The notes under the pieces were generated by a model that did not search any database, had not been told where the DNA came from, and saw only the letters and a program-made list of their open reading frames with translations. DNA of 64,000 nt, from the NCBI GenBank assembly GCA_965207575.1, contig OZ242288.1:2941467-3005466 (forward strand), read 5' to 3'. Of the stretch, positions 7,085-36,998 are shown piece by piece. This stretch comes from an uncultured Candidatus Binatia bacterium. GTDB lineage: Bacteria; Desulfobacterota; Binatia; Bin18. Every line of letters starts with the position of its first letter. The first letter of the stretch is position 1. The position numbers were made by a program, and so were the translations under genes.

Positions 7085-7618
7085 ATGCCAACCCCGGCCG
7101 TTACGCGCAACCCGTTTTCCTGGTTTTTGCTCCTCGGCCTGCTCCTGAGCGGATTTCTGATCTGGCTGATTTACTATAAGCCGGCGGCCACGACAGAGGG
7201 AGAGTGGGTGACCTACCTCCCGGCGGCCAACGCCGGTTTTAACGCCCTGTGCGCCTGCTGTTTGATCGGCGGGTTTGTCAACATCAAGCGCGGCAACCGG
7301 GAGCGGCATATACGCTGCATGCTGGCCGCGCTCGTGTTCTCAGTCCTCTTTCTGGTGAGTTATATCGTCTATCACCATTTTCACGGCGATACCCCCTTTC
7401 CCGGCCAGGGACCGATTCGGCTACTGTATTTTTTCATCCTGATCAGCCACATCGTGCTGTCCATTGTCGCCCTGCCCCTGGTCTTCACCACGCTCTACCA
7501 CGCGGCCCGCCAACAGTTTGAGGCCCACAAAAAGATCGCGCGCTACACCTTCCCGGTCTGGCTCTACGTCTCGGTCACCGGCGTGCTCGTCTTCTTTTTT
7601 CTCAGAGCCTATACGTGA
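7085..7618 (+). CDS. DUF420-type small membrane protein
   Basis: Four predicted TM helices and a YHHFHG motif. The length and topology match DUF420 proteins. Confidence 0.45.
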   Translation: MPTPAVTRNPFSWFLLLGLLLSGFLIWLIYYKPAATTEGEWVTYLPAANAGFNALCACCLIGGFVNIKRGNRERHIRCMLAALVFSVLFLVSYIVYHHFHGDTPFPGQGPIRLLYFFILISHIVLSIVALPLVFTTLYHAARQQFEAHKKIARYTFPVWLYVSVTGVLVFFFLRAYT

Positions 7619-7792
7619 ATACGGGCAACCCAGCCCGGCCTTCGGCCATCCCTCCAAGAAGGGGATCAGGAAGGATGTATGACGACGCAGCCTCAAGATG
7701 GCCGACGAGTACGCCACACCACCAACCAGAGCTTGCGGTCATCTTCCGAATAATGATATCGCTTTCTCAATATACTGATATCGGATGAGGCT

Positions 7793-8041
7793 ATGAGCAA
7801 AGTGTTTGTCAGAACAGTAATCAGCCTGGATGACGAACAGAAGGCGTGGCTGGACCGGCAGGCTGCGTTGCGCCGCGTGTCCATGGCCTCGCTGATTCGC
7901 CAGGCGGTCAGCGAATTTCGGATGCGGGAACAGCGCGGCTCGGCGACCTCGTTTCAAGAGGTGCTCAAGCAGACGGCGGGCATCTGGCAGGGCGGGGACG
8001 GACTCGAGTACCAGGAGCGTATTCGCAAGGAATGGCCCTGA
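7793..8041 (+). CDS. vapB: Type II antitoxin, RHH/CopG-like (VapB)
   Basis: 82 aa; N-terminal ribbon-helix-helix-like segment; 4-bp gap before the PIN toxin gene. Confidence 0.6.
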   Translation: MSKVFVRTVISLDDEQKAWLDRQAALRRVSMASLIRQAVSEFRMREQRGSATSFQEVLKQTAGIWQGGDGLEYQERIRKEWP

Positions 8042-8643: not shown

Positions 8644-10911
8644 CTATGCTTGCAGCGTAATCGGCTCAAGCGCATCACCCCGCGCCTGTACGGTGCCGAT
8701 AATAACCGCGTCCTGATAGCCCAGAGCCTGAAGCTCCCGGAGACACGCCTGGGCCTGTTCGGCCGGGACGCTGGCCAGGAGTCCGCCGGCGGTCTGCGGG
8801 TCGAACAGCAGAGCGTAGTACGGATGCCGGGCCGCCCGCTCCCCCTCGCGAATGGCCCGCCGCAGCCGAATATTCTGCGGTTGCAGGGACGAAAAAATGC
8901 CTTGCAGAATGACCTCCAGCGCACCGGGCAGGATCGGCAGCCGTTCCATATCGAGAACCGCGTCAACGGCCGAGGCGCGGACCATTTCGACCAGATGGCC
9001 CAGCAGGCCGAATCCGGTCACGTCGGTCATGGCGGTCGCGCCGTGCTGACGCAGGCAGTCCGCTCCGGCTCGATTTGACTGCCGCATGGAGGCGAGCGCG
9101 GCTTCGATCCAGCGGCCTTTGGCCTTGTGTCGCATGTCTGCGGCAAACAGCGCACCGGTTCCCAGCGCCTTGGTCAGAATCAGGGCTTGTCCCGGCTGCA
9201 TGCCGCTTTTTTTCAGCACGGATTCCTGGCTGGCCAGACCGTTGATGGCGAATCCAAGCGCCAGTTCGCTGCCCTCGCTGGTATGCCCGCCAACCAGGGC
9301 GGTGTGTTCCCGGTTGAGCACCTCCAAGGCCCCGGCCATGAGCTGGGTGAGCTGGTCCTGGACCTTGTGTTCCAGGCCGTACGGGACGGTGACCATGGCC
9401 AGAGCGGTCTGCGGCTCCGCGCCCATGGCAAAGATATCACCCAGGGCATGGGTGGCCGCGATCTGGCCGAAGACAAACGGGTCCTCGATAAAGGCCCGGA
9501 AAAAATCAACGGTTTGTACCAGCGCTTTTCCGGGCGGGACGGTGACTACTGCGGCATCGTCCGGCGCGTGCAGACCGACAATGACATCGGAGCGGTCAAC
9601 CGGCTCAAGGCGTGCCAGGGCCTGGTTGAGGACCGTACTACCGATCTTGGAACCGCAGCCGCCGCACCGCATGGCAAAGGCGGAAACCTCTTTGAGGATC
9701 TGGGCATCGGCCAGTCCCGGCTCTACCTGGGCCGGCTCGTCGTCGGGCATATCCGGCAACTCGTTGTATTTGCGGATAAAGCGCCGGTCGATCCAGTCTT
9801 TCCACTTCCAGACCCACCTCCCCTCACACGCCCAGCGTGAACGCGAGGCCACCGCATATTGGTCTCCGGTAGAGATCAGGCTCAGAAACTGCTTTTGCGG
9901 CGCAAAGGCTTTGACGGGCTGGCCTCGCAGGAAACGGCGCAGATTCTTCGCCAAGGGCGGGCCCTGGCGGACGGCGAACACACCGGATTTTGGGCGGGGA
10001 TGGTTGACGACTGCGGCAATATCCCCGGCGGCAAACACCTCGGGATGGGAAACCGACTGGAGCGTGTCCTGCACGGCGATAAAACCCTGCTCGTCTGTGG
10101 CCAGGCCGGCCTCTCCCGGCCAACCGGCAGCGCCGGCCGTGGTGACCCACAGCATCTCGTCCAGAGCGAGTTGGGTGTCATCGGCAAAACGCACGCACCC
10201 TTCGGCAGCGCCGGTGACGAGACAATCCGTTCGGACCTCGACGCTGCGCTGCTTGAGAATACGCATAAACGCGGCTCGGACACGTGGGTTGTGGGTCGGC
10301 AGAATCTCTGGTGTCCCGCTGATGAGGTAGAAAACGAGATGGTCGGCCGACCGGTTTTGCCGGGCGAGCAGACGTTCGAGGCAGTATTGGACGGCCAGCA
10401 GGAGTTCCACGCTCCCGGCTCCACCGCCGATAACGCCGATTGTCGTGCGGGCGGTCCGGGCCAGACAGCGCTCGCGGAGCTGTTCCCAATGCCGCCAAAA
10501 ACTATCTATGGGCTTGACGGCCACACCGGTGTGCCCGGCCCCGGGGATATGCCCAACAGCCGGTGTGGCCCCGATATTAATGGACAAGGCATCATAGGCC
10601 ACGGGTGGCCGGGTACGACACACCACCTGCTTGTTGGTCAGGTCCAGGCCGATCACTTCATCGTGAAAAAACTGCGCTCCGGCGAACCGGGACAGCGGCC
10701 CAAGATCGATATGGGCCTGATCAAAGCCATAATGCCCGGCGATATAGCCGGGTAACATGCCGGAATACGGCGCGTGCGTATCGCGGCAAATCAGCGTCAC
10801 GCGGACACCCGGCAACGGCTTCATGCCAAAGCGTTTCAGCACGGTGACATGACTGTGGCCACCGCCGATCAGGACCAGATCTTTGACTACCGGAGTGGAT
10901 GTCGGCCTCAC
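8644..10911 (-). CDS. selD: Fusion protein: FAD/NAD(P)-dependent pyridine-nucleotide-disulfide oxidoreductase (NDH-2/SQR-like) N-domain + selenophosphate synthetase SelD (Cys-type) C-domain
   Basis: N-terminus has the Rossmann motif VLIGGGHSH and a second GxGxxG ([12 protein letters not shown]). The C-terminal 350 aa carry the SelD signature [13 protein letters not shown] (compare E. coli GCGCKISPKVL) and the PurM/AIR-synthase-related fold. Confidence 0.8.
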
Positions 10912-10994
10912 AAAAGCGATCCTTCAGTACCGTAGGAACCCACCCCGTCGCCACGCGGCACCCTTCCTAAGAGGAGGGAAAGCACGTCCCGCCG

Positions 10995-13040
10995 CTATTC
11001 ATGCTGCAAAAGGAGATTCCCGCTTACGTCATACTGGACTGTCCAGCCGGGCGGTACAACCACCGTGGTATCTGGTTCTTCTACAATGAGCGGGCCGCTC
11101 CGCGCCTGTTCAAGAGCGGTGCGCTGATAGACCGCGGCCTGGCATTCGCCCACCTGGGGACCGAAATACGCCGTGCGGGAGGCTGGAGACGGAGGGGTGT
11201 TCCCGGTTCCAGTCAGCTCGGTCAGGCGTAGGTGGCCGGAGGAGGCTAGGGCTCGCAGCCGAACGCTGACAAGCTCAATCGTATCGGCTCGATCATAGCC
11301 AAACGCCTGGCGGTGCGCTTCGGTGAAGAGCTGGGCCAGACGGTCCTGCATGTCCGCGACTGATACGTTGGGAAAAGGCAGACTCAGCTCGGCTACCTGA
11401 TAGCCATACTTGAGATCGACCTGGCGCTCAAAACGAATCTGCTCCGCGGCAATCCCTTCGTCGGCCAACTCGACCCGCGCCTGGGTCTCAAGCTCCTGGT
11501 AGTGACGCAGCACGGCCTGCGGATCAAGCTGGTCCAGAGCCACGGCCACGCTACGGATATAGTCGTGGCGATAATCCGCCAAGAGGAGTCCAAACGCGCT
11601 GAACAAGCCTGGGGAGAGCGGAATCTGAACCTGCGTCATACTCAGGCTGTCCGCCAGGGCCGCGGCGTGCATCGGCCCGGCTCCGCCAAATGCGATCAGG
11701 GTAAAGTTACGCGGGTCTCGCCCACGTTCGGTCGAGACGGCCCGCAGGGCGCGCATCATGGTCGCGTTTGCCACCTGGGTGATACCATAGGCCGCGGCCA
11801 GAACTTCCACATTGAGCGGTCGGGCGATTTTTTGCTCAATCGCAGTCCAGGCGGCCCGGCGGTCGATGGCCAGAGTTGCACCAGCGATGGCGTCGGGGTT
11901 CATATAGCCCAGCACGACATTGGCGTCGGTCACGGTCGGCTCGGTTCCGCCCCGGCCATAACAGGCCGGCCCGGGGTCCGCGCTGGCGCTCTGGGGGCCG
12001 ACCCGTAAGGCACCCCCGTCATCTATCCAGGCAATACTACCGCCGCCGGCGCCCACTTCCACGATATCGAGCGAAGGGACGCGGAGCGCATGTCCGCCGC
12101 CGCCGAACAAACGCGTGGTCATGGTTGCACCGCCCCCGATCTCCCCGCCCGGCTTCTCAAGCGGCACGCCGTTTTCGATCAAACAGGCTTTGGCGGTCGT
12201 CCCTCCCATGTCAAACGAGAGCACCTGATCCTGCTGCGTCTCCTGGGCGAAACGCGCCGCAGCCAGCACGCCGGCGGCCGGACCCGACTCGATCATATAC
12301 GCGGGCCGGCGCCGGGCGGCCTGGGCGCTCATAATGCCGCCGTTGGACTGCATAATCAGAACGCGCTCGCTATAGGCCGAGAGGTGCCGTTCCAGTCGAT
12401 CAAGATAGCGGTCAACGACCGGAATCAGGGAGGCGTTAATGACGGTTGTACTGGTGCGTTCGTACTCGCGAATCTCGGGGTGGATATCGTACGACAGACA
12501 CACCACCGTATCCGGAGCCGCTTCAGCGATAAGACGTCCCAACTGCTGTTCGTGCGTGGGATTGAGATAGGAGTTCACCAGGCAGACGGCTATCGTTTCC
12601 ACTCCGGCGGCCAGAAGCTGATCAATCACCGCTCGGGCCTGTATCGGATCGAGCGCACGCTCAATACGGCCGTTGCCCAGAATGCGCTCCTGGACTTCCA
12701 AACGCAGGGAACGGGGCACGAGAGGCGGCAGGCGGTCCCAGTCCGCGTCATAGATATTGGGCCGCCGCTGCCCGCGCATTTCAAGTTCGTCCCGAAATCC
12801 CTGGGTGGTAATCAGTCCGGTCCGCGCGGTGGTCTCTTCGATGACGGCGTTTGAGGCAATGGTCGTGCCGTGGACGAAGCCCTCGACCTGGGCCCGCGCA
12901 TCGACCTCATTGACGCAGCGGACGATATCTTCGCCCACCTGATCGAGCAGCGAGAGGACCTTCGTGGTGAACAGGCGTCCGTCGTCGCCAACCACAATAA
13001 CGTCGGTGAAGGTTCCGCCAATATCAAAGCCTATACGCAT
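10995..13040 (-). CDS. hyuA: Hydantoinase/oxoprolinase A subunit (HyuA family), paralog 1
   Basis: MRIGFDIGGTFTDVIVV... N-terminus; 681 aa Hydantoinase_A family. Confidence 0.85.
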   Translation of the reverse strand: MRIGFDIGGTFTDVIVVGDDGRLFTTKVLSLLDQVGEDIVRCVNEVDARAQVEGFVHGTTIASNAVIEETTARTGLITTQGFRDELEMRGQRRPNIYDADWDRLPPLVPRSLRLEVQERILGNGRIERALDPIQARAVIDQLLAAGVETIAVCLVNSYLNPTHEQQLGRLIAEAAPDTVVCLSYDIHPEIREYERTSTTVINASLIPVVDRYLDRLERHLSAYSERVLIMQSNGGIMSAQAARRRPAYMIESGPAAGVLAAARFAQETQQDQVLSFDMGGTTAKACLIENGVPLEKPGGEIGGGATMTTRLFGGGGHALRVPSLDIVEVGAGGGSIAWIDDGGALRVGPQSASADPGPACYGRGGTEPTVTDANVVLGYMNPDAIAGATLAIDRRAAWTAIEQKIARPLNVEVLAAAYGITQVANATMMRALRAVSTERGRDPRNFTLIAFGGAGPMHAAALADSLSMTQVQIPLSPGLFSAFGLLLADYRHDYIRSVAVALDQLDPQAVLRHYQELETQARVELADEGIAAEQIRFERQVDLKYGYQVAELSLPFPNVSVADMQDRLAQLFTEAHRQAFGYDRADTIELVSVRLRALASSGHLRLTELTGTGNTPPSPASRTAYFGPQVGECQAAVYQRTALEQARSGPLIVEEPDTTVVVPPGWTVQYDVSGNLLLQHE

Positions 13041-13124
13041 GTCTTCATCCGTTCAGATCAGAAGATCGCAGTGGCCGGGCGAGGGCCACCAAAGAAGAGT
13101 GAGTCTGAAGCATCCGGTCCGTGA

Positions 13125-14867
13125 CTAGTCTGCTGCCGCAACCGGTTGCAAGCGGGTGGCTCGCAGAGCCTCGGTTTCCGGCGTATTCACCGCAGCCGCG
13201 TCCGTATCAATCACCACCCCATACTGATCTCGCGCCTGGGCGACGGACAGCTTTTCGTCCTGCACGTCGGCCAGCACCTGGGCGGGGTCGCGCTCCAGGG
13301 GATTGCCGTGTCCGCCCGAGCCGGACACGATGTGGTGAATGCGATCGCCCGGCTTGACGTCCATATGCAGATGGGCTTTGCGCGGCAGTTCCCGACCCTC
13401 GGCTTCTGGATTCAGAATGTTTTTGGACAGCGAGCCGGGCGCGCCACCGGCCAGCCCCCCGGAGGCCCGAATGAGACGGTTGGTGCGAACCATGACTTTT
13501 CCGGGGCTCAGGAAACGCCACTGTTTATAGATGGACACCGAGCCCCGGTGCTTGCCGGCGCCGCCCGTATCCGGCACATAGCCAAACCCGTCAACGACCA
13601 GCGGGAATTCACGTTCGAGCAGTTCCGCCGGAATGGTTCCGTACGACCCGAAGGCCATGGGCGCCACGCCATCAATCCCGTCCTTGCGCGGCCGTCCGCC
13701 CCAGCCGCCAAAGAAAATATCCATGACCGCAAACGGTGTCCCGTCTTCCTTCTCACCAGTAAAGTGCAACACGTCCCCACCCTCTCCGGGGATGGGCACC
13801 CGGTCGGGCAACGCCTGGGCCAGGGCACGAAACAGCATGTCAAAAACCCGAAAGAATAAGGGCGCGCGGCCACCGACCGCGGCCGGAAAGCGCGGGTTTA
13901 CCAGGGTACCGAGTGGCGCAACGATCTGTATGGGCCGAATAAAGCCGACGTTGGTTAACACCTCAGGGCTGACAATGCTCTTGACCGCGCCATAGACCGT
14001 CGCTTCCGTCATGCTCAGCGGCAGGTTGATCGCCCCGCGCGCCTGTGGACCGGTGCCGGTGAAATCAACGCTCAGGGTTTCGCCCTGTGCGCGCAGGGTC
14101 ACCTTGATCGGCAGGGCTACACCGTCGGAGCCAAAACCATCGTCCTCAAAGGCGTCCTCATACACATACTCGCCCGGAGGAATCTCCTTGATGGCCGCCC
14201 GAGTGGCCTTTTCCGCATAGGCAATCAAATAGTCACAGCACGAGCTGAACGTATCCAGGCCGTATTTTTCGAGCAGACGTTTCAGTTCCTGCTCGCCACG
14301 CCAGCAGCCCGCGATTTTTGCCTCCACGTCTCCGAGCCATTCGTCGGATACCCGGACGTTGGCCAGAATCGTCTCCAGGAGGGCTGCGTTGCGCTCCCCG
14401 GCCTTGTACAGTTTGATCGGCGGCAGGCGGAGCCCTTCTTCGAAGGTTTCCGTACACTGGCTGCTGAACCCGCCCGGAAAGCGCCCGCCAATATCGGTGT
14501 GGTGCGAATAGGCCAAGGTAAAGGCGACCCGCCGCCCCTGCCAGAACGTGGGCGCAATGATCATTACGTCCGGCATATGGGTGACACCGGCATACGGATC
14601 GTTCACCACAATGATATCGCCGGGCGCGAAGTCCTCCCCGTATTTTTTGAGGATGTGCGGCATCACCGCAATAAAGAAGGCCAGTTGAAACGGAGCCGCA
14701 TAGCCCTGGCCGATTAACCGGCCCCGGCCGTCGCAGATAGCGGTGGCAAAATCTCCGGTCTTGACCATGGCCGAGCGGCCGGTTTTCCACACCGCAATCG
14801 CCATTTCTTCGGTAATGGCGGCCAACTCGTTTTTCACAACCTCAACCAGAATAGGATCAAATGCCAT
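13125..14867 (-). CDS. hyuB: Hydantoinase/oxoprolinase B subunit (HyuB family), paralog 1
   Basis: MAFDPILVEVVKNEL... ; 580 aa Hydantoinase_B family. Confidence 0.85.
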   Translation of the reverse strand: MAFDPILVEVVKNELAAITEEMAIAVWKTGRSAMVKTGDFATAICDGRGRLIGQGYAAPFQLAFFIAVMPHILKKYGEDFAPGDIIVVNDPYAGVTHMPDVMIIAPTFWQGRRVAFTLAYSHHTDIGGRFPGGFSSQCTETFEEGLRLPPIKLYKAGERNAALLETILANVRVSDEWLGDVEAKIAGCWRGEQELKRLLEKYGLDTFSSCCDYLIAYAEKATRAAIKEIPPGEYVYEDAFEDDGFGSDGVALPIKVTLRAQGETLSVDFTGTGPQARGAINLPLSMTEATVYGAVKSIVSPEVLTNVGFIRPIQIVAPLGTLVNPRFPAAVGGRAPLFFRVFDMLFRALAQALPDRVPIPGEGGDVLHFTGEKEDGTPFAVMDIFFGGWGGRPRKDGIDGVAPMAFGSYGTIPAELLEREFPLVVDGFGYVPDTGGAGKHRGSVSIYKQWRFLSPGKVMVRTNRLIRASGGLAGGAPGSLSKNILNPEAEGRELPRKAHLHMDVKPGDRIHHIVSGSGGHGNPLERDPAQVLADVQDEKLSVAQARDQYGVVIDTDAAAVNTPETEALRATRLQPVAAAD

Positions 14868-14915
14868 AGCTCTCCTCCCGGCCCGCGTGTCTGACGCGGG
14901 CCGTCCATTCTCCCG

Positions 14916-16661
14916 TCAGGTCCTCAGCTCGGACCGCAGTGTTGCCCGGAGTTGCGCCGTCCGCTGCCAGTCAACCTGCTCCGTGCTCTGGTCAATGGCG
15001 ACCCCGTATTCCCGCTCGGCGTACGCGGCTGAGATTTTCTCGTCCAACACATCGTCCAGGACGAGCCGGGGGTCACGCGAGAGCGGGTCGCCATAACCGC
15101 CCGCACCCGGTTGGACATGCAGCAGGGTTTCTCCGGATCGTACTGCGGTATCGATGAGCATTTCGTGTGGGAGTGGGGTTTCTACCTCGCCGGAGCGCAG
15201 CCTGGCATCAAACGGGGTGCCGTCTTTTCCGCCGGCCAGCCCATACGGAACGGATTTGACTCGACAGGTTCGGAGCATTACCCGGCCGTCGCCCAGAAAG
15301 CGCCATTTCCGGTACACGGACAGGGCCCCACGGTATTGACCCGGACCGCCGGTATCCGGCAAAAAGCCAAAGCCGTCCAGCATGACCGGACATTCGCGCT
15401 CGATCATTTCCGCTGGAATGCTGCGCATGGCGCCGCCGGCAGCCATGGGGGTGACGCCTTCCACCCCGTCGCTATCGGGCCGCGCGCCCCAGCCCGAGGT
15501 GTAAATATCCAGCAGCATGGACGGCACGCCCGCCTCGACCTGGGGCGTATACACCAGCAAATTCGCCCCACCCTCGCCCGCGGCGTAGACCTTGTCGGGA
15601 ATGGCCTGGGCCAGGGCGGCAAAGATCATGTCGATAATCCGCCACATCAGCATCCCGCGCGCGCCGACCGCGCCGGGGAATTGCGGATTGACCACGCAGC
15701 CCTCGGGAGCAGTCACCTGAATGGGGGCCATCAGCCCCGAGTTTGCCGGCGCATCCGTCTCAAGAATGGACCGAAAGGCCACGTACACACAGGCACGGGT
15801 GAGATTAAAGGGAACGTTGATCGCGCTGCGGACCTGGGGGCCGGTGCCGTCAAAGTCCACCCGGACGGACTCGCCGGCAACGGTCACCGTGAGACGCAGG
15901 TTGACCCCCTCCCCGCCCAAGCCGTCATCTTCAAACAGATCCGTACACGCATATGAGCCGTCCGGGATGGCGGCAATACAGGACCGCATGGCCCGCTCGC
16001 TGTACTGGCGCAGTTGTTCGTTACAGGCTGCAAATTGTTCCAGCCCGTGGCGGTCGAGCAGCTCCCGGACTCCCTGGGCACCACGCCGGCAGGCCGCGGC
16101 CTGGGCGTCCAGGTCGCCGCGTACATCCTCAGGTGCCCGGACGTTGGCGGCAACCATATCGACCAGATCGTGATTCAGCTCACCCTTGCTGAAGAGCTTG
16201 ACTCCCGGAATACACACCCCTTCTTCGTAGACTTCGGCACAGGCTATGCCCATGCCACCGGGGAAGCGGCCGCCAATATCGGTGTGGTGTTCTACGATGG
16301 CCGCAAAGCCGACCAGTTGTTCCTGCCAGAAAATCGGCATGATCAGAACGATGTCCGGGAAGTGAGACACCCCGCCGTAGGGGTCGTTTGAGACAATCAC
16401 ATCGCCGGGGTGGAGGTCGTCGCCAAATTTCTTCAGCACCCACGGCATGACCCCCATGATGTAGCCCAGGTGGACGCCGATGGTCAGGCCCTGGGCGATC
16501 AACCGGCCCTGGGCATCAACCAGCGCGGTGGAAAAATCAGAGCCTTCCTTGGCCCCCAGCGAGCGCGCCGTCCGCTTCATGGTAATGCCCATTTCTTCGG
16601 CGACTGCGGTCAGCTCGTTTTTCATGACTTCGATAAGAATGGGGTCAAATGCAGTTGGCAT
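14916..16661 (-). CDS. hyuB: Hydantoinase/oxoprolinase B subunit (HyuB family), paralog 2
   Basis: MPTAFDPILIEVMKNEL... ; 581 aa. Confidence 0.85.
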   Translation of the reverse strand: MPTAFDPILIEVMKNELTAVAEEMGITMKRTARSLGAKEGSDFSTALVDAQGRLIAQGLTIGVHLGYIMGVMPWVLKKFGDDLHPGDVIVSNDPYGGVSHFPDIVLIMPIFWQEQLVGFAAIVEHHTDIGGRFPGGMGIACAEVYEEGVCIPGVKLFSKGELNHDLVDMVAANVRAPEDVRGDLDAQAAACRRGAQGVRELLDRHGLEQFAACNEQLRQYSERAMRSCIAAIPDGSYACTDLFEDDGLGGEGVNLRLTVTVAGESVRVDFDGTGPQVRSAINVPFNLTRACVYVAFRSILETDAPANSGLMAPIQVTAPEGCVVNPQFPGAVGARGMLMWRIIDMIFAALAQAIPDKVYAAGEGGANLLVYTPQVEAGVPSMLLDIYTSGWGARPDSDGVEGVTPMAAGGAMRSIPAEMIERECPVMLDGFGFLPDTGGPGQYRGALSVYRKWRFLGDGRVMLRTCRVKSVPYGLAGGKDGTPFDARLRSGEVETPLPHEMLIDTAVRSGETLLHVQPGAGGYGDPLSRDPRLVLDDVLDEKISAAYAEREYGVAIDQSTEQVDWQRTAQLRATLRSELRT

Positions 16662-16685
16662 GAACCTTCTTCCTTCACTTGCCTC

Positions 16686-16916
16686 TTATGCGGCTGGAAG
16701 TTCGCGTACGTGCAAAATTTCTCGCTCTCGCATAAGGCGAACGTCGGATGGAGTCAGCGTTAGTAGTGCTATCGTCTTCCCTTCCGCTGTCACAAACTCA
16801 ACCTCAAGCCCTTGACCATCCTGGTAGCAATGCACCACAACGCCGATATCGCCTTCCTTGAGCCCATGATTTTCAACATCATGAGTAAGAACGACCGTAT
16901 CAAGCTCTTGGAACAT
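16686..16916 (-). CDS. DUF4926-family small protein
   Basis: 76 aa; ELDxVxLTxDxxxHxLKxGDIGxVV...YEVEF pattern typical of DUF4926. Confidence 0.55.
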   Translation of the reverse strand: MFQELDTVVLTHDVENHGLKEGDIGVVVHCYQDGQGLEVEFVTAEGKTIALLTLTPSDVRLMREREILHVRELPAA

Positions 16917-16938
16917 AGATTCCTTCCTTCTCTCTTAT

Positions 16939-17271
16939 CTATAACGGGTAGGCAGTGACAAAGCGAGGATTATTCCGTTGTCCTTCAACAATCCAAACAG
17001 TACGAATACGGACTTTCCTCTTTGTCTTTGTTTCCAGTGCCCCTTCAATGACGTATTTTATTCCATGAGTTGATCGCGAGACACTTGTCACCTCGTTAGT
17101 ACGGGCAAAGGTTAAGAGTTGCTGCTTGAGGTCTTCCTCTCCAGCTACACTAAAACCAATCGCCTGAAAGAACTTAGACTTTGCTTTGCCAACCGCATGC
17201 GTAGGAGAGAGTAGGTATCTTGATAATTTCCCTTGGGGAATGTAGGCGTTGCGTCGATTGGGTAATTTCAC
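16939..17271 (-). CDS. DUF6883-family protein
   Basis: 110 aa; MKLPN... N-terminus and ...IRTVWxVxxGxxxPRFVTAYPL C-terminus as in DUF6883. Start overlaps the hyuA2 stop (ATGA). Confidence 0.5.
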   Translation of the reverse strand: MKLPNRRNAYIPQGKLSRYLLSPTHAVGKAKSKFFQAIGFSVAGEEDLKQQLLTFARTNEVTSVSRSTHGIKYVIEGALETKTKRKVRIRTVWIVEGQRNNPRFVTAYPL

Positions 17272-19364
17272 TTCACTACCTGCAAGACAATATTCCCATA
17301 CGCATCGACACTCGCCTGCCAGCGCGGCGGGACTACAACCGTGGTGTCAAACTCTTCGACAATCAGGGGACCGGCGACAGTCTGTTCGAGCAGGTCCCCT
17401 CGGCTCAGAATCCGGGTATCGAGCTCACCCTGCTGCGGGCCGAAATACGCGCGTCGAGAGCCCAACTGAGTTGCCTTTTTTGCCGATTGACCGAAATACC
17501 CGCCCAATTCGCTGAAGGACAGACTAGGCGTTCGGACGGTTGCCTTCAGGCGAACGCTGACGATGGCAATAGTATCGTCCTCACGGCGATATCCATACGT
17601 TTGTTCATGCGCGGCGTGAAAGCTTTCGGCCAGCACCTGCCTTATGTCAGCGGCCTCAACCTGAGCCGGAACCGTCAGGGTCAGTTCCGACGACTGGCGC
17701 TGGTAGCGTAAGTCGATCAGGCGTTCATAGGTGAGACCGTCCTGCTCACGCTGCTCATTATGAGCATCCTGCTTCGCACGGGCCACCAGCGTGTCAAATT
17801 CCTGGAGCAGAGTCGTGGGATCAACAGTCTCCAGCTCCTGCGGCACGCTCTGCACATAGTCGGAGCGCAGGTCGGCCACCAACAGGCCCAGCGCGCTGAA
17901 CACCCCAGGGAAAAGCGGAATATACACCCGCGACATACCCAGATTATCGGCCAGCGTCGCCGCGTGCAGCGGGCCTGACCCTCCGAAAGCGATCAGAGTG
18001 AACTCACGAGGATCACGGCCCCGCTCGGTCGTGACCGCGCGTATGGCGCGCGTCATGGTCGCGTCAGCCACCTGATGAATCCCAAAGGCAAGCTCGTGAA
18101 CCGACAGACCGAGACGTGCACCCAGCCGTGTCTGTATGGCGGTCTGCGCGGCAGTGGCATCAATGGGGACGGTCCCACCGGCGATGCTGGCCGGGTTCAT
18201 ATATCCCAGGACCACGTTGGCGTCGGTGATGGTCGGTTCGATTCCGCCCCGGCCATAGCAGGCCGGTCCGGGGACGGCACCCGCGCTACGGGGTCCGACG
18301 CGCAGCGCGCCACCGTCGTCTACCCAGGCCAGGCTGCCGCCTCCCGCACCGACCTCGACAATATCGTAGGCGGGAACGCGCAGTGCATAGCCGGCACCCT
18401 TGCTCAGCCGCCCAGCCCGGTTAATACCCGCCCCAACCTCGCCTTCGGCGGTTTCAACCGGCTGGCCATTTTCGATCAGGCAACCTTTGGCGGTCGTCCC
18501 GCCCATATCAAACGCGACCGCCTGAGCCAGACCGATTTCCCGCGCCAGGCCGGCCGCGGCCAGGGCACCGGCCGCAGGACCGGATTCGATCAGGTGCACC
18601 GGGCGGTGACGGGCGTGCGCGGCGCTCATGATCCCCCCGTTGGACTGCATGATTTGCAGGGCTGGAGGATAGGCCTGGAGCTGCGTTTCCACCTGGTCCA
18701 GATAACGTCCGACTACGGGCATGAGGTAGGCGTTCAGCGCCGTGGTGGAGGTACGTTCGTACTCGCGAACCTCGGGCAGGATGTCGGCCGAGGAGCAGAC
18801 CAGGACTTCCGGGAATATCTCGCGGATCAGAGCCACGGTCTGTTGCTCATGGCTGGGATTGACGTAGGAATGCAGAAACGCCACGGCAATGGCTTCGACA
18901 CCCTGGCGTTTGAGGCTGAGTATGGCCTGACGCACCTCTTCGTCGTTGAGCGGCGTCTCGACCTCGCCCCGAACGGTCATGCGTTCGCTGACTTCAAGTC
19001 GGCGGCGACGTGGGATCAGGGGCGGCGTACGCTGCCAGAACACGTTGTAGACACTCGGACGTCCCAGGCGGCGGATTTCCAATTCGTCCCGAAAGCCTTT
19101 AGTGGTAATCAGACCGGTTCGGGCGCCCTGTTCTTCCAGGACCGCGTTGGAAGCGATGGTCGTGCCGTGGACGAGACTCGCAATGGAACTCTCCGGGTGC
19201 TGGCGTTCGGCATCGGCAATACAGCGTCCAACGTCTGCGCCAACAGAATCGGGCAGGGTCAAAATTTTATAGGTCAGGAGTTGGCCGGCGGCACCGGCTA
19301 TGACGACATCGGTGAAGGTTCCGCCAATGTCAAAGGCAACGCGAAGGCTGGCCGGAGTAGACAT
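17268..19364 (-). CDS. hyuA: Hydantoinase/oxoprolinase A subunit (HyuA family), paralog 2
   Basis: MSTPASLRVAFDIGGTFTDVVIAG... ; 698 aa. Confidence 0.85.
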   Translation of the reverse strand: MSTPASLRVAFDIGGTFTDVVIAGAAGQLLTYKILTLPDSVGADVGRCIADAERQHPESSIASLVHGTTIASNAVLEEQGARTGLITTKGFRDELEIRRLGRPSVYNVFWQRTPPLIPRRRRLEVSERMTVRGEVETPLNDEEVRQAILSLKRQGVEAIAVAFLHSYVNPSHEQQTVALIREIFPEVLVCSSADILPEVREYERTSTTALNAYLMPVVGRYLDQVETQLQAYPPALQIMQSNGGIMSAAHARHRPVHLIESGPAAGALAAAGLAREIGLAQAVAFDMGGTTAKGCLIENGQPVETAEGEVGAGINRAGRLSKGAGYALRVPAYDIVEVGAGGGSLAWVDDGGALRVGPRSAGAVPGPACYGRGGIEPTITDANVVLGYMNPASIAGGTVPIDATAAQTAIQTRLGARLGLSVHELAFGIHQVADATMTRAIRAVTTERGRDPREFTLIAFGGSGPLHAATLADNLGMSRVYIPLFPGVFSALGLLVADLRSDYVQSVPQELETVDPTTLLQEFDTLVARAKQDAHNEQREQDGLTYERLIDLRYQRQSSELTLTVPAQVEAADIRQVLAESFHAAHEQTYGYRREDDTIAIVSVRLKATVRTPSLSFSELGGYFGQSAKKATQLGSRRAYFGPQQGELDTRILSRGDLLEQTVAGPLIVEEFDTTVVVPPRWQASVDAYGNIVLQVVK

Positions 19365-19413
19365 GCCGGGTTATGCAGGGCTCAGAGGAAGGAGAAGCGC
19401 ATACGCGCCGGCC

Positions 19414-19815
19414 TCAAGCCTTGAGCAGAGCAAAGGCCTCAATCTCAATGAGCAGGTCTTCAAGCACCAGCGCCTGAACGCCGATGAGGGTGCTGGCCGG
19501 TGCTTTTTCCTGGGGCAGATACTGGCTGCGAACCTCACGGACCACGCCGATCATGTCAGGCGTATAATTAACAATATACGTATTGGTCTTCAGCACGTCG
19601 TCAAACGTGGCCCCAACCGCGGCCAGCGCCCCTTTGAGGTTTTCAAAGGTCTGGACGACCTGGGCGCGCAGGTCGCCCTTGCCCACCACCGCGTTGTTCG
19701 CGTCCAAGGCGACCTGGCCCGAGATGAAAACAATTTTTCCCTCGGTTGCGGTCACCACCTGAGAGAAGCCCGGCAAAACGGGCAGACCGGCGGGATTCAG
19801 GAATTCCTTTTCCAT
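19414..19815 (-). CDS. RidA/YjgF-family reactive-intermediate deaminase
   Basis: 133 aa; YjgF/RidA family sequence. Confidence 0.75.
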   Translation of the reverse strand: MEKEFLNPAGLPVLPGFSQVVTATEGKIVFISGQVALDANNAVVGKGDLRAQVVQTFENLKGALAAVGATFDDVLKTNTYIVNYTPDMIGVVREVRSQYLPQEKAPASTLIGVQALVLEDLLIEIEAFALLKA

Positions 19816-19836
19816 ACGTTTCTCCTCATGTTTATG

Positions 19837-19857
19837 CCTTCTCCCGCGGGGAGAGGG
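19837..19857. promoter_or_regulatory. Intercistronic hairpin CCTTCTCCC-GCG-GGGAGAGGG, 5' of the RidA ribosome-binding site
   Basis: Inverted repeat read directly. Member of the recurring CCCTCTCCC/GGGAGAGGG hairpin family (also at 21538-21564 and 60774-60794). Confidence 0.4.
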
Positions 19858-19865
19858 TTTTCTCG

Positions 19866-20948
19866 TCAGGGCCGCACTTCATAATAGGCGTTGAACGGAT
19901 TGTCAAAGTCGTGGCGGGTGAAGCGGGTGAACCCGGCGTCGCGCGTCATGCTCCGCGCCACCTGTTCGTTAAAGCCCAGGGTACCCAGGCCGGCGCCGTC
20001 CGGCTCGGATAAGGCCGAGGACATGCAGCCCATCACCGAGAAGGCATACATCAAACCGGTCATGGGGTTCTTCAGATTTTCCTCAAACGTCGGGGCGCTC
20101 TTAATATCGGCGATCAGCCAGGTTCCATCCGGCTTGAGCGCCGACCGGATAGCCCGAATGGCTTCCGCCGGATGAGTCATATCGTGGATGCAGTCAAACG
20201 TGGTGATGAAGTCAAAACTCGCATCGGCCGGCAGCCCGTCCTGGGCCGCGTGATGAAACCGGAGGTTGGTCAGCCCGGCCTCAGCCTTGTTGGCATTGGC
20301 GCGGGCCAGCGCGTGCTCCGATATGTCATAGCCGTGAAAGTCGGCCTGCGGAAAGGCTGCAGCCATTTGAACCAGCGCAATCCCGGCGCCGCAGCCCACG
20401 TCCGCCACCTTTGCGCCGACTTGCAGTCTGGACTCGACCCCGTCCAGGGCGGGCAGCACAATGGGGATCAGCGCGTGCCGGTACCAGGGGGCAAAGACCC
20501 GCTCGATGCCCCGTGCGCCTTCCGGCCCACGCGCGTCGTAGGGGAGACCCAGGCCGCTACGAAAGGCCTCGGGCAGTTTCTCCAATATGGCCATGCGTTG
20601 CGGAAAATCGCTGAAAATACCGGCGGCAAACTTGGGACTGTCCTCGTCCGCAAGAATCATGGCCATTTCAGGCGAGAGGGAAAAGCGTTCCTCCCCCGCA
20701 TACTCAAGCAACTGGGCCGCGGCCTGCCCTCTCAACCACTCCCGCACCCAGCGCTCACTCAAGCCTGTTTTGTTGGCCAACTCCTCGCTCGTCACCGGCC
20801 CGGCACCGTGCAAGGCCCGGTACAATCCGAGTTGGTCGCCCAGGTGAATCATGGCCGAGATTAAGGCGCCGCTCAGCAGGCCAAAGACTTTTTGACCGCC
20901 GGCCTTGAGTTTGTCCGGGTCTATATGGTCACGAGACGGTTGATCCAC
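19866..20948 (-). CDS. Class I SAM-dependent methyltransferase with N-terminal winged-helix/dimerisation domain
   Basis: SAM motif I VADVGCGAGIAL; N-terminal HTH-like segment as in O-methyltransferase-type proteins. Confidence 0.65.
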   Translation of the reverse strand: MDQPSRDHIDPDKLKAGGQKVFGLLSGALISAMIHLGDQLGLYRALHGAGPVTSEELANKTGLSERWVREWLRGQAAAQLLEYAGEERFSLSPEMAMILADEDSPKFAAGIFSDFPQRMAILEKLPEAFRSGLGLPYDARGPEGARGIERVFAPWYRHALIPIVLPALDGVESRLQVGAKVADVGCGAGIALVQMAAAFPQADFHGYDISEHALARANANKAEAGLTNLRFHHAAQDGLPADASFDFITTFDCIHDMTHPAEAIRAIRSALKPDGTWLIADIKSAPTFEENLKNPMTGLMYAFSVMGCMSSALSEPDGAGLGTLGFNEQVARSMTRDAGFTRFTRHDFDNPFNAYYEVRP

Positions 20949-20973
20949 ACGCGCTCCCTTCTCTCCGACCGGA

Positions 20974-21420
20974 CTACATCCCGCTGATCAACTCAAGAAT
21001 GGTTCCGTCCGGGTCCTTAAAGCAGACGACCCCAATCTCCGCGCCTCCGGGTCCGTCGATTTTTTTGAGGGGGGCTAAGAATTCAACCTGCATTTCCTGG
21101 AGGTCGGCATAGGTCTTGTCGATATCGTCCACGTCGAAGGCAATACGACAGATCCCGATGTTATTGAGCGACGGGTAAGGCTCGCCCTGCGGGGGCGGAT
21201 CGATAAACTGGACCAGGTCCAGGACCGGAGCGTTCTCATCGTCTCCGAGACGCATAAACACGCCACGCAGCTTCCGGGCGTCGAGGCCAAGCGCCTCACC
21301 GACGGTCGGGTCTTCAAGCGTAAAGTCGTTGACCTTGTTAAACCCGAGCTTCTCATAAAACCCAATGGACCGCTCCATATCGCGGACACAGACGTTGACG
21401 TGAAATAAACGAGTCAGCAT
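20974..21420 (-). CDS. VOC-family (glyoxalase/bleomycin-resistance/dioxygenase) protein
   Basis: 148 aa; beta-alpha-beta-beta-beta VOC pattern. Confidence 0.7.
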   Translation of the reverse strand: MLTRLFHVNVCVRDMERSIGFYEKLGFNKVNDFTLEDPTVGEALGLDARKLRGVFMRLGDDENAPVLDLVQFIDPPPQGEPYPSLNNIGICRIAFDVDDIDKTYADLQEMQVEFLAPLKKIDGPGGAEIGVVCFKDPDGTILELISGM

Positions 21421-21462
21421 GTTCCCCTCCTTTAGTTTAGAGTTCTGACGACATCACTGTAG

Positions 21463-21489
21463 GTCGGATTAACGCAGTGTAATCCGACA
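21463..21489. repeat. Hairpin GTCGGATTA-N9-TAATCCGAC immediately 3' of D-aminoacylase 1
   Basis: Near-identical copy lies immediately 3' of D-aminoacylase 2 (35280-35305). Confidence 0.5.
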
Positions 21490-21575
21490 ACGCAAGGGGT
21501 TCATTTGGTGGGTGGCCGGGGCGCACTCGTGGCGGACCTCCCCCTCCCCCAAGGGGAGAGGGAGTTAGGAAGAGA

Positions 21576-23258
21576 CTAGACCTGACCCGAACGCAGCACC
21601 TGGCCCGGCATGGCCCCGGTATGTTTGCCATCGTCGAACAGCACTTCTCCGTTCACGATCGTGTACTGCACGCCCTGGGCCGGCATGACCAAGCGCCGTC
21701 CGCCACCGGGCAGGTCGGCTCGCATCTCGCCGCGGCGGGCCGAGCCCACCGTGTTGTAGTCAAAAATCGCAAAATCGGCCGCCATGCCTGTTGCGATCTT
21801 GCCCCGCGTGGTCATCCCGTAGAACGCGGCCGGCTCGGAGGTAATCCGCCTTACCGCGTGCTCAAGCGTCATGGCTTGTCTGTCCCGCACCCAGGTGCCG
21901 AGCAGATAGGTGCAGTAGCCGGCGTCACACAGCATGTCCACATGGGCTCCACCGTCCGACAGGCCGACCATGACCTGGTCGTGCGTAATCAGCTCGGGAA
22001 TGCGGTCTTCGTCGGCGTTGAACAGCTCGTAGGTATACTGGAGTTGCAGGTCATCCTCGATACACAGGTCCAGGAAGGTGTCGAGCCCGTCTTTACCGCG
22101 CTCCCTGGCAATCTCGGCCACGCTCTTGCCCATCAGGGATTGCATGGCGGGATTACCCACCTCATGGACGATGGCGCGTTCCCATTTACCCGAGAACACC
22201 TTGGGCGACTCCATCTCTTTGCGGAATGCGGCCCGGAAGGATTCATCTCTGTAGAACGCCTTCTGCTTCTCAATCGGCTGATCGAAGGCCGGCTTCCAAC
22301 ACGGCAGGTTGGCAAAGATGAACGGTTTGCGCAGGTCGATCTGAATAATGAGTGGACGACAAGTTACCTGCGGAATGGCGCCCTTCTCGAACAGCGGCTC
22401 AATCGTGCGCAGGGTATTCATGGCTGCATCCGGCTGATCGTCCCGGTTCAGCAGCGCCAGCCAGGTGACCTTGCGGCCGCTTTCGGTCAGGAGCATGTCC
22501 AATAAGGCATGCTCGGTTTCGTCAACAATAGAGACATTATTGGTCAGGGCGAGTTCGATACTGCCCTTGCCGAGTTCTTTAAGCGCGTTGCAGTATGCCT
22601 TGAGTTCGTCCCAACTGGCATTACGGCAGGCAATCGGACGGCCTTTATAGCCGATGTGCTGAGCAACATTCGTGGTCGAAAAGCCAAAGGCTCCAGCGGC
22701 AACCGCCTCTTTAATCAGGGCCTTAATCTGTACGATTTCCTCGGGTGTGGCGCCCCGCTCCATTGACTCTTCGCCCATCACAAAGTGGCGGAACGGAGTC
22801 AGCGCGGCCATAAAGCCGATGTTAATGCCGCTCCCGCGCCTTTCGGCCGCATTCATATATTCGGGGAAGGTGACCCAATCCCAGGTTACGCCTTTGCCCA
22901 GCACGTCAAACGGGATGGCTTCCACGTTGACCAAGTCCCAGGCCGCGATGTCCTGCACCTCGGGTTTGCACGGAGCCAAGCCGACCCCACAATTACCCAT
23001 TACCAGACTGGTGACCCCATGCCAGGAAGAGGACGTGATCAGCGGGTCCCAGCAAATCTGGGCGTCATAATGAGTATGCGGATCAACAAAGCCGGGTGCC
23101 ACGATCAGGTCGGAGGCATCCACAACCTTCTTGGCTCCGTCCGAGACTTTACCGATTTCCGCAATCTTTCCGTTGGCTACCGCGATATCGGCCCGGTAGC
23201 GTTGTGCGCCGGTTCCATCCACCACGGTTCCGTTTTTGATGACGAGATCGTACGACAT
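21576..23258 (-). CDS. N-acyl-D-amino-acid deacylase (D-aminoacylase) family amidohydrolase, paralog 1
   Basis: 560 aa; metal-binding motifs DPHTHYD and NCGVG typical of the D-aminoacylase subfamily of amidohydrolases. Confidence 0.8.
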   Translation of the reverse strand: MSYDLVIKNGTVVDGTGAQRYRADIAVANGKIAEIGKVSDGAKKVVDASDLIVAPGFVDPHTHYDAQICWDPLITSSSWHGVTSLVMGNCGVGLAPCKPEVQDIAAWDLVNVEAIPFDVLGKGVTWDWVTFPEYMNAAERRGSGINIGFMAALTPFRHFVMGEESMERGATPEEIVQIKALIKEAVAAGAFGFSTTNVAQHIGYKGRPIACRNASWDELKAYCNALKELGKGSIELALTNNVSIVDETEHALLDMLLTESGRKVTWLALLNRDDQPDAAMNTLRTIEPLFEKGAIPQVTCRPLIIQIDLRKPFIFANLPCWKPAFDQPIEKQKAFYRDESFRAAFRKEMESPKVFSGKWERAIVHEVGNPAMQSLMGKSVAEIARERGKDGLDTFLDLCIEDDLQLQYTYELFNADEDRIPELITHDQVMVGLSDGGAHVDMLCDAGYCTYLLGTWVRDRQAMTLEHAVRRITSEPAAFYGMTTRGKIATGMAADFAIFDYNTVGSARRGEMRADLPGGGRRLVMPAQGVQYTIVNGEVLFDDGKHTGAMPGQVLRSGQV

Positions 23259-35312: not shown

Positions 35313-36998
35313 TCAGAGCGGCTGGAGCAGCGTACCGGGCAGCCCGCCCTGGTGGACATTGTCCGAAAAAACGATGTTGCCGCCGACAATGGTATGCTGG
35401 ACGCCGGTGGCCCGTTCAATCAGACGGGGCTTTTCTCCCGGCAGGTCGTTGACCCATTCGGGCGGCTGAGGACCGATCGTCTCGGGATCAAAAATGACCA
35501 GGTCTGCATCAAGGCCCGCGGCAAGACGGCCCTTCTTGGGCTGATTGAGAAACCGGGCCGGCTCCGAGGTCAGACGGCGCACGCCCTCCTCAAGCGGCAT
35601 GGCCTGGCGCTTTCTCACCCACTCCCCGAGCAGATAGGTCGGCACCCCGGCGTCGCAATGCTGGTCCACGTGCGCTCCGGCATCGGACAGGCCGATGAGA
35701 CAGTCGGGATTGGTGATCAGCTCACGCACTTCGTCAGGATTGGTGTTGATGACCGAGAGCGTAATGCCCATTTCCAGGTTTTCGTCAATGGCCAAGTCCA
35801 GGATCGTATCAACCGGGTCGCTATGCGTTTCCGTGGCAATGTCCGCGATGCTTTTGTTCAAGTGTCGGGTGTTATGGTCTTTCGTCACCTTGACCACGTG
35901 AACCTGATTCCACTGGTTGGTGAAAATGGCGCCGCCGATTTGCAGGTCCTGGCGAAAGGCCGCCCGGAACTCCGGCTTCCGGTAAAGCGCGATCTGTTCC
36001 GCAACCGGTCGATTGAACGCCTCCTTCCACGACGGCAGGCTGGCAAAGATAAAGGGCACCTTGAGAGTGTAGTACTGCTGGATGGGACGCGGGGTAACTT
36101 GGGGTGGAATCCGCAGTCCTTTGTCGAAAAAGGGTTGGAGGCGATCGAGGGCTGACCGGTAGACGCCGGGTTTATCCGACCGCCCCAGGAGCGCCAGCCA
36201 GGTGATCGGGCGCTGGCTGGCTTCGGCCATGGCCAGCAGCAATGCCAATTCCTCGTCGGTCAACACGCTCACGCTCCGGGTCAGCGCGATCTCGATGACG
36301 CCCTTGCCCAGCTCTTGCATCACCCGACCGAGCGCGCAGAGTTCCTTCTGGGTGGCCATACGACTCGCTAGGGGTTTGCCCTGGTAGCCGATGTGCTGAT
36401 CGAGCAGGCTCAGCGAGTAGCCATACGCCCCAGCCTGCATGGCTTCCCGAAAAAGAGCGGTCATGCGGGCGAGCTCTGCGTCGGTTGCCTCGCGCTCGGA
36501 GGCTTCGGCGCCCATGACAAAATAGCGAAAGCTGGATAGCGGCACCAGAAAACCCACGTTGAGGGCCGTGCCGCGTTGCCCGATGGCCTGCATATACTGC
36601 GGAAAACTCTCCCACTCATCCCAGGCCACGCCATTCAGCAGTACCTCTTGCGGCATGGCCTCCACGTTGACCAGGTCCCACGAGACAATCTCTTTCTCCT
36701 GCGGGCGACACGGCGCAACACCCACCCCGCAGTTGCCCATCAGGACGCTGGTCACCCCGTGCCAGCCCGAACAGGTGAGGAGCGGGTCCCAGGAGACCTG
36801 CGCGTCGTAGTGAGTATGAATATCGATAAACCCCGGCGCGACCACGCAACCGTCGGCGTTGACTGTCCGTGTTGCCGGTCCGGATACCGAGCCAACGTCG
36901 GTGATGACTCCGTCCTTGACTCCGACAGCACCGTGAAAGAGCGCCGCGCCAGTGCCATCACAAATCTGGGCGTCTGTAATGAGCAGGTCGTAGGCCAT
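35313..36998 (-). CDS. N-acyl-D-amino-acid deacylase family amidohydrolase, paralog 2
   Basis: 561 aa; about 60% identical to paralog 1 in the N-terminal half, with the same metal-binding motifs. Confidence 0.8.
   Translation of the reverse strand: MAYDLLITDAQICDGTGAALFHGAVGVKDGVITDVGSVSGPATRTVNADGCVVAPGFIDIHTHYDAQVSWDPLLTCSGWHGVTSVLMGNCGVGVAPCRPQEKEIVSWDLVNVEAMPQEVLLNGVAWDEWESFPQYMQAIGQRGTALNVGFLVPLSSFRYFVMGAEASEREATDAELARMTALFREAMQAGAYGYSLSLLDQHIGYQGKPLASRMATQKELCALGRVMQELGKGVIEIALTRSVSVLTDEELALLLAMAEASQRPITWLALLGRSDKPGVYRSALDRLQPFFDKGLRIPPQVTPRPIQQYYTLKVPFIFASLPSWKEAFNRPVAEQIALYRKPEFRAAFRQDLQIGGAIFTNQWNQVHVVKVTKDHNTRHLNKSIADIATETHSDPVDTILDLAIDENLEMGITLSVINTNPDEVRELITNPDCLIGLSDAGAHVDQHCDAGVPTYLLGEWVRKRQAMPLEEGVRRLTSEPARFLNQPKKGRLAAGLDADLVIFDPETIGPQPPEWVNDLPGEKPRLIERATGVQHTIVGGNIVFSDNVHQGGLPGTLLQPL

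Follow-up and report, generated by a model that had tools for sequence, protein, structure and literature searches.

Why do two small genes of the DUF6883 and DUF4926 families lie in the middle of a gene cluster for hydantoinase-family enzymes? The question is raised by a 64,000-nucleotide stretch from an uncultured Candidatus Binatia bacterium (GenBank assembly GCA_965207575.1, contig OZ242288.1, positions 2,941,467 to 3,005,466), referred to here as the window. The first-pass annotation of this DNA left two answers side by side, a selfish or addictive module captured by the operon or a genuine accessory function for the enzyme. We consider it highly likely that the pair is a selfish or addictive toxin-immunity cassette, captured in the spacer between hyuA2 and hyuB2 of a conserved hydantoinase-family cluster in a Candidatus Binatia lineage. 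The genes of the locus, with the hyu genes assigned by Pfam, are:

17268-19364, minus strand: hyuA2, 698 amino acids, A-type hydantoinase/oxoprolinase subunit.
16939-17271, minus strand: DUF6883 gene, 110 amino acids, GTG start, intact in the window; predicted BECR-fold endoribonuclease toxin.
16686-16916, minus strand: DUF4926 gene, 76 amino acids; predicted antitoxin or immunity protein, a small SH3/KOW-like beta-barrel.
14916-16661, minus strand: hyuB2, 581 amino acids, B-type hydantoinase subunit.
13125-14867, minus strand: hyuB1, 580 amino acids, second B-type subunit.
10995-13040, minus strand: hyuA1, 681 amino acids, second A-type subunit.
16653-17286, minus strand: inserted cassette of ~634 bp, delimited by the junction alignment and its low GC content.

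Both A-type subunits contain the Hydant_A_N, Hydantoinase_A and Hydant_A_C domains (E 1e-94) and both B-type subunits the Hydantoinase_B domain (E 1e-151 to 1e-163). The DUF6883 protein matches profile PF21814 with an E-value of 1.7e-29 and 102.7 bits, against a gathering cut-off of 27, and covers positions 1-108 of the 110 in the profile; its neighbour matches DUF4926 in Pfam with an E-value of 1.2e-20. Open reading frame coordinates and Pfam matches bear out the order hyuA2, DUF6883, DUF4926, hyuB2, hyuB1, hyuA1 on the minus strand, and the intergenic gaps are 22, 24, 48 and 84 nt, as had been claimed. The stop of hyuA2 and the start of the DUF6883 gene had been described as an ATGA overlap. 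The 4-nt overlap is real, but its sequence is GTGA: the GTG start codon occupies 17271-17269 and the TGA stop of hyuA2 17270-17268. There is no ATG nearby, and homologues start with M/V-K-L-P-N at the same position. As the DUF6883 gene opens with GTG-AAA, and the TGA within that hexamer is the hyuA2 stop, the overlap is an automatic result of the start context: the hyuA2 frame continues into the cassette and ends at this TGA. Translational coupling of DUF6883 to hyuA2 is plausible from this arrangement.

Relatives of the locus were collected by a scan with hyuA2 of one genome per species, which gave 66 loci. The closest are 18 metagenome-assembled genomes of Candidatus Binatia, with 86-97% amino-acid identity in hyuA2, and synteny was mapped by tblastn with the twelve cluster proteins of the window. 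The whole cluster, including the A-B-B-A order of the hyu genes, is kept in all 18 close relatives and in two distant ones, L018 and L019 (66% and 63% hyuA2 identity, respectively). The pair, however, is not: ten of the 18, as well as L018 and L019, have an empty site, in which hyuA2 and hyuB2 are contiguous and only ~30 nt apart. The other eight close relatives are occupied, which together with the window makes nine loci, all with identical junctions. Both small genes are found in L001, L002, L003, L008 and L012, while in L007, L010 and L016 DUF4926 is present and DUF6883 is absent or shortened. An embedded pair in every orthologous operon would have spoken for a family-typical arrangement; with 12 empty loci the pair is an insertion.

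The alignment of the nine occupied and 12 empty loci shows what was exchanged. Across the hyuA2/hyuB2 junction the empty allele reads ...GGGAATATTGTGCTAAGCAAAAGTTCATAA-ACGAGGACAATCTT-ATGGCCGGTGCATTTGAC... In the occupied alleles, ~42 bp between ...AATATTGT and GCATTTGAC... are swapped for ~634 bp (window 16653-17286). The replaced ~42 bp span the intergenic spacer together with the final four codons of hyuA2 on one side and the initial three of hyuB2 on the other, and the cassette supplies its own version of each end. HyuA2 now ends with QVVK and a stop in place of SKSS (...GNIVLQVVK* in occupied and ...GNIVLSKSS* in empty loci), and hyuB2 receives a ribosome-binding site, placed 24 nt past the DUF4926 stop, and its first three codons, MPT replacing MAG. 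No mobility gene was found. The only similarity noticed by eye between the two cassette boundaries, without a dedicated search for target-site duplications or terminal inverted repeats, is the 7-mer AGTGAAG, which may be due to chance. The presence of the cassette is patchy even among nearest neighbours, as L008 has it in full, L016 has it with the toxin gene deleted and L009 is empty, with a junction that resembles that of L011. The loci are also mosaic, with abrupt changes in identity. The simplest reading of these sequences would be one old acquisition, followed by swapping of occupied and empty alleles through homologous recombination.

The cassette is compositionally foreign. No other stretch of the 64 kb is as low in GC: the minimum over 400 bp is 0.443, against a mean of 0.598 (standard deviation 0.039). 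Its GC content is 0.45-0.50, compared with 0.62 in the flanks, and GC at third codon positions (GC3) is 0.42-0.46 in the cassette genes and 0.69-0.74 in the four hyu genes. A recent horizontal arrival was considered and rejected, as synonymous divergence (dS) among the occupied loci is equal in the cassette genes (0.28-0.34) and in hyuA2 and hyuB2 (0.33-0.37), and the distances of cassette and flanks correlate (Mantel r 0.53-0.58, p about 0.001).

What the inserted genes encode can be approached from their predicted structures. The AlphaFold2 model of DUF6883 is confident (predicted local distance difference test, pLDDT, 94.8) and consists of three helices followed by a four-stranded sheet; the packing of the N-terminal helices on a four-stranded antiparallel sheet is that of the BECR fold. 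The model has only one strong structural match, to CdiA-CT of Klebsiella pneumoniae 342, a tRNase toxin (PDB 6CP9), with weaker matches to RelE, MqsR, BrnT and HigB2; profile searches of the PDB sequences returned chance-level matches alone (E >= 0.12). The active site of the Kp342 toxin is formed by K157, Y160, H170, R252 and T255, its substrate is tRNA-Ile(GAU), and it needs GTP and the elongation factors EF-Tu and EF-Ts (PMC9086364). In DUF6883, residues K15, Y19, H25, R103 and T106 repeat the same residue types in the same order and with similar spacing. They are conserved in 190, 190, 188, 163 and 188, respectively, of 192 aligned members, and all five are present in the window copy. Judging from the model, DUF6883 is most likely a BECR-fold endoribonuclease and probably a tRNase of the CdiA-CT(Kp342) type.

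The family is large, with 6884 clusters at E <= 1e-3 in a profile search of 1.84 billion representatives, and its members are mostly free-standing proteins of ~110-120 amino acids in many phyla. Some carry N-terminal extensions, the domain always being C-terminal; among the top 150 profile matches most are free-standing, and some have 140-270 amino acids with the domain at the C-terminus.

The DUF4926 model is a small five-stranded SH3/KOW/Tudor-like barrel with a pLDDT of 87. The family has a mean column identity of 63% and is 70-76% identical across phyla. A strong Shine-Dalgarno sequence precedes the gene (AAGGAAGGA-N6-ATG). The protein most likely binds and neutralises DUF6883, which would make the two a toxin and its antidote.

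Evolutionary evidence for these roles comes from the occupied loci themselves. The toxin gene is intact in four of the nine (the window, L001, L008 and L012), where all conserved residues are kept, and in the other five it has been destroyed in five independent ways. Premature stops interrupt it in L002 at codon 66 (CGA -> TGA) and in L003 at codon 3 (TTA -> TGA). In L016 a 153-bp in-frame deletion removed the helices, while the remainder of the cassette is 99.7-100% identical to L008, and in L007 and L010 the toxin body was replaced by GC-rich palindromes resembling repetitive extragenic palindromes (REP). DUF4926, on the other hand, is intact in all nine loci, and dN/dS among them is 0.06 for DUF4926, 0.076 for hyuB2, 0.13 for hyuA2 and 0.21 for DUF6883. 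Loss of the toxin with retention of the antidote is the pattern that a toxin-antidote pair predicts. The reverse decay, with the antidote lost and the toxin kept, was not seen in the Binatia loci or in the other DUF6883 loci viewed; an Agrobacterium plasmid homologue of DUF6883 (33% identity) has no DUF4926 annotated downstream. Such decay of chromosomal copies into orphan antitoxins has also been reported for other toxin-antitoxin (TA) families (PMC7192599, PMC10790755).

A wider sample points in the same direction. It consists of 80 metagenomic DUF4926 loci, 77 of them assessable, that were picked by conserved DUF4926 peptides; it is thus biased to intact DUF4926 and blind to antidote loss. 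A DUF6883 gene lies upstream in full length in 43 of the 77 and as a partial copy in 19 (three of these at a contig edge), and 15 loci have none. The orphan DUF4926 genes show no recurrent alternative partner upstream. In several cases, e.g. P0179, P0214 and L148, the N-terminus of the toxin (KLPN...) is fused straight to DUF4926.

The same sample bears on the claim that the two families usually travel as an independent pair, and this is what is found: the 43 full-length DUF6883 genes are directly upstream of DUF4926 in unrelated neighbourhoods, i.e., two adjacent co-directional small genes recur as a module. The pair occurs in a housekeeping region of Armatimonadota and, tightly wedged between two co-directional genes, on a Nitrosococcus plasmid; more distant homologues are found on plasmids of cyanobacteria, Thermus, Rhizobium and Bacillus. 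None of the 80 loci has hyu genes within the fetched flanks.

As a separate observation, in L067-L069 (4001-4574 and flanks) the pair stands beside the RNA-repair genes Hen1 and Pnkp and an ArdC-like gene, a neighbourhood that is suggestive of an RNA-damaging toxin.

We suggest the following course of events. A two-gene cassette would have entered the hyuA2/hyuB2 spacer, replacing about 42 bp. After the insertion the hyuA2 frame would have extended a few codons into the cassette to end at the TGA of the toxin's GTG-AAA, and the 3' end of the cassette would have furnished the ribosome-binding site and first codons of hyuB2. The pair is presumably transcribed together with the cluster, and the toxin may be translated weakly from its coupled GTG start, the antidote efficiently from the strong Shine-Dalgarno sequence and ATG. 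In this scheme DUF6883 would act as an RNase, probably on tRNA, and would be blocked through binding by DUF4926. With no role in the enzyme, the cassette would persist as a selfish or addictive passenger, from which the toxin is lost repeatedly and in which the antidote gene is kept. The RNase activity and its target, the neutralisation by DUF4926, the co-transcription and the addiction effect are what we infer here. In a scan of 10800-21600 no sigma-70-like promoter was detected, and terminator-like sites were no more frequent than expected by chance; the absence of promoter-like sites is compatible with co-transcription, without being a demonstration of it.

The captured module that the first-pass annotation offered as its first option thus agrees with the variable presence, the foreign composition, the BECR RNase-toxin fold and the repeated decay of the toxin beside a retained DUF4926. 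Several points weigh against it. The equality of dS with the flanks and the Mantel correlation make the cassette an old resident that co-diverged with its surroundings, and its GC3 has not ameliorated despite this long residence in nine lineages. The active-site match to the Kp342 toxin is based on the type, order and spacing of the residues rather than on a residue-level superposition. The DUF4926 model has no DNA-binding fold (no helix-turn-helix, ribbon-helix-helix or AbrB), which sets it apart from the classical type II antitoxins that control their own promoters. Autoregulation is hence not expected, and "toxin-immunity pair" would be a more fitting term than "autoregulated TA system" of the classical kind. 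DUF4926 is also far more conserved than DUF6883, the reverse of what holds for many TA pairs. Neither family has a PADLOC or NCBIfam model, and no experimental work on either, be it on toxicity or on neutralisation, turned up in the literature. Finally, a second pair in L070 (5001-5586), 60% and 64% identical, sits at the RidA/hyuB1 spacer of an orthologous methyltransferase-RidA-hyuB-hyuA operon and might be a sign that the association with hyu genes is not random.

L070 raised the question of whether the pair has a specific affinity for such operons. We judge this unproven, given the 80 unlinked loci and the abundance of both hyu paralogues and TA-like genes. With three hyuAB pairs and about four TA-like loci per 64 kb chance co-occurrence is unsurprising, although this base-rate argument is rough and taken from the 64-kb window, not genome-wide.

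The retention of DUF4926 can also be read in another way, namely that what matters functionally is DUF4926, with a dispensable toxin, either because DUF4926 acts as an orphan immunity protein against external BECR-Tox3 toxins (the name given to DUF6883 in a preprint discussed below) or because its translation drives hyuB2. DUF4926 is intact in all nine loci, among them the five with a dead toxin, with a dN/dS of 0.06 across the nine, and the short distance from its stop to the hyuB2 ribosome-binding site (24 nt) would fit translational driving. Moreover, 34 of the 77 metagenomic loci lack a full toxin (three of the 19 partial copies being at contig edges) and the orphans have no other recurrent partner; word-indexed searches gave 836 DUF4926 clusters against 155 of DUF6883. 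According to the preprint, DUF6883 occurs in fusions with phage MuF proteins (bioRxiv 10.64898/2026.08.28.747851), which we could not confirm, and a tblastn search with DUF6883 of 50,697 phage genomes found no toxin match. Yet four of the nine loci, including the window, still encode a full-length toxin in which every conserved residue is present, the 76 codons of DUF4926 are a small mutational target, and choosing metagenomic loci by conserved DUF4926 peptides favours intact copies. The selection test pools all lineages, and the amino-acid changes per lineage are 1.8 in those with a dead toxin versus 1.25. Taken together, we regard this explanation as rather unlikely. In a broader version of it, DUF4926 may be a broadly useful stand-alone immunity protein against outside BECR-Tox3 RNases, secreted or fused to phage MuF proteins; as a further speculation, the spacers of the many hyu-family operons in Binatia may be preferred, selectively tolerated landing sites. 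It would explain why DUF4926 outnumbers DUF6883, its conservation across phyla and the purifying selection beside dead toxins, and the landing-site part is based on at least six different small cassettes across three different hyu spacers. We consider it improbable.

The second option of the first-pass annotation, an accessory function, would make the pair a component of the enzyme or the operon, either as small extra subunits, which acetone and acetophenone carboxylases indeed have, or as an RNase-based checkpoint coupling growth to substrate catabolism. The tight packing, with a 4-nt overlap and gaps of 22 and 24 nt, and a residence long enough to co-diverge with the flanks would be expected of such a component, and the divergent pair in the orthologous operon of L070 could be taken as a second case. 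That pair, however, is at a different spacer, and the L070 operon also holds an unrelated cassette of orf115 and DUF2283. Ten of the 18 close relatives and both distant A-B-B-A clusters do without the pair, five of the nine carriers have inactivated the toxin, and the absence of hyu genes from all 80 other DUF4926 loci points away from an enzyme-linked role. An RNase-toxin fold is unlike the known small carboxylase subunits, and hyu paralogues (three pairs in the window) and TA-like genes (about four in 64 kb) are common. The accessory function is largely refuted by synteny, and we hold it to be extremely improbable. A further proposal would be abortive infection, in which case the pair would protect against phages and have come to lie in the operon by chance. 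Phage defence is a role of many type II TA systems whose toxin is an RNase, homologues occur on plasmids, and the surroundings in L067-L069, with ArdC, Hen1 and Pnkp, appear to be a mobile or conflict island. No PADLOC model matched, there are no defence genes near the cassette in the window, and the frequent loss of the toxin speaks against strong defensive selection in the Binatia lineage. This makes an anti-phage role quite unlikely here, and a captured toxin-immunity passenger is the explanation that we favour.

The host cluster has its own history. Identity is 56% between A1 and A2 and 48% between B1 and B2, and the A-B-B-A order consists of two diverged pairs side by side, one A-then-B and the other B-then-A. 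Each is also found alone, A-then-B in L020-L024 and B-then-A after the methyltransferase and RidA genes in L025, L028, L030 and L070. On the same strand upstream of the cluster are genes for a coenzyme A (CoA)-transferase, an amidohydrolase, a glyoxalase, a helix-turn-helix methyltransferase and RidA. Directly downstream of hyuA1, a 755-amino-acid open reading frame (8644-10911, minus strand) fuses Pyr_redox_2 (a pyridine-nucleotide-disulphide oxidoreductase) to AIR-synthase-related domains (SelD/ThiL/HypE-like); this fusion gene is kept in all close relatives. A third hyuA/hyuB pair (26913-28991 and about 29016-30790, both plus strand) is 35-39% identical to the other two, and hyu-family genes altogether make up ~18% of the window. 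Among NCBIfam models, the hyu genes score best with those of caprolactamase, CapA and CapB (NF050156/NF050157), at 531 and 536 bits for the A subunits and 334 and 282 bits for the B subunits. All four scores are far below the equivalog cut-offs of 1000-1500 bits, so the match does not reveal the substrate of the cluster.

Other small genes are found in hyu spacers of the relatives. L070 has a second cassette (7376-7917) at the hyuB/hyuA spacer, consisting of orf115, with a weak LPD3 match, and DUF2283; L028 has this cassette as well. The hyuB1/hyuA1 spacer holds the following:

L025, 3812-4754: DUF7718 and DUF5647 genes.
L030, 9300-10000: a 23S_rRNA_IVP four-helix-bundle gene.
L050, 5398-6067: an 89-amino-acid open reading frame and an Asp_protease_2 (aspartyl-protease-like) gene.
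L055, 9215-10000: a DUF433 gene and a weak DUF5615 match.

In the window this spacer is 84 nt long, while it reaches 174-530 nt in L002, L003, L007-L010, L014 and L016; the long versions (e.g. L010 16045-16574) contain REP-like units and a shared stretch without a convincing open reading frame. Such GC-rich palindromes, e.g. CCCTCTCCCC..GGGGAGAGGG and GGCCGGGCAACC..GGTTGCCCC, are found repeatedly, in numerous spacers of the cluster across Binatia genomes. REP-like palindromic units are located at:

Window, 19836-19858 and about 21539-21563.
L007, 12086-12276.
L010, 12095-12244.

The window also contains further TA-like loci, each in a low-GC dip. A DUF2283 gene (37011-37271, minus strand, 86 amino acids) lies 12 nt upstream of an amidohydrolase paralogue (35313-36998). 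DUF2283 is the usual antidote partner of DUF4258-type BECR toxins; this copy has no recognisable toxin partner and looks like another operon-embedded orphan. A PIN-domain gene (54697-55143, minus strand) has an unassigned 158-amino-acid open reading frame directly upstream (55153-55629, minus strand), and a DUF6364 gene is at 61693-62043 (minus strand).

For annotation, the consequence is that the pair should not be taken as part of a hydantoinase-family enzyme or pathway, as the A-B-B-A cluster does without it in most relatives. The occupied and empty sites form a natural allele series within one lineage (empty, intact, nonsense, deletion, toxin-replaced), and this series is evolutionary evidence on which partner is the toxin. 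The structural match adds a specific hypothesis, a CdiA-CT(Kp342)-type tRNase that is possibly EF-Tu dependent, and the pair is small and easily tested.

How does the pair compare with known systems? A preprint of 29 August 2026 names DUF6883 "BECR-Tox3", finds DUF4926 conserved downstream of it and suggests that the two are toxin and immunity protein (bioRxiv 10.64898/2026.08.28.747851). The Pfam families, the toxin-first order and the inference of an RNase toxin with an immunity protein are the same as for the window pair. That work, however, is a classification study without a functional test in which fusions to phage MuF proteins are frequent, whereas the closest members of the window pair are free-standing. 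The toxin-immunity prediction itself is thus already in the preprint, while the present analysis adds the instance embedded in an operon, the polymorphism of empty and occupied sites and the series of decaying toxin genes; the evidence from the allele series is independent of the fold-based prediction. The nearest structural match of DUF6883, CdiA-CT/CdiI of Klebsiella pneumoniae 342 (PDB 6CP9), is a BECR-fold tRNase toxin with an immunity protein. Among the type II TA systems with reversed gene order, HigBA, MqsRA and BrnTA also place a small RNase toxin of the BECR/RelE fold class upstream of the antidote, but the window pair differs from them in that DUF4926 has no DNA-binding fold, no sigma-70-like promoter was detected and the antidote is more conserved than the toxin. 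As to the host operon, caprolactamase CapAB, acetophenone carboxylase Apc and N-methylhydantoinase HyuAB have the same sets of A and B domains, while the scores of the host genes (282-536 bits) are below the equivalog level of the CapAB family and the A-B-B-A layout sets the cluster apart.

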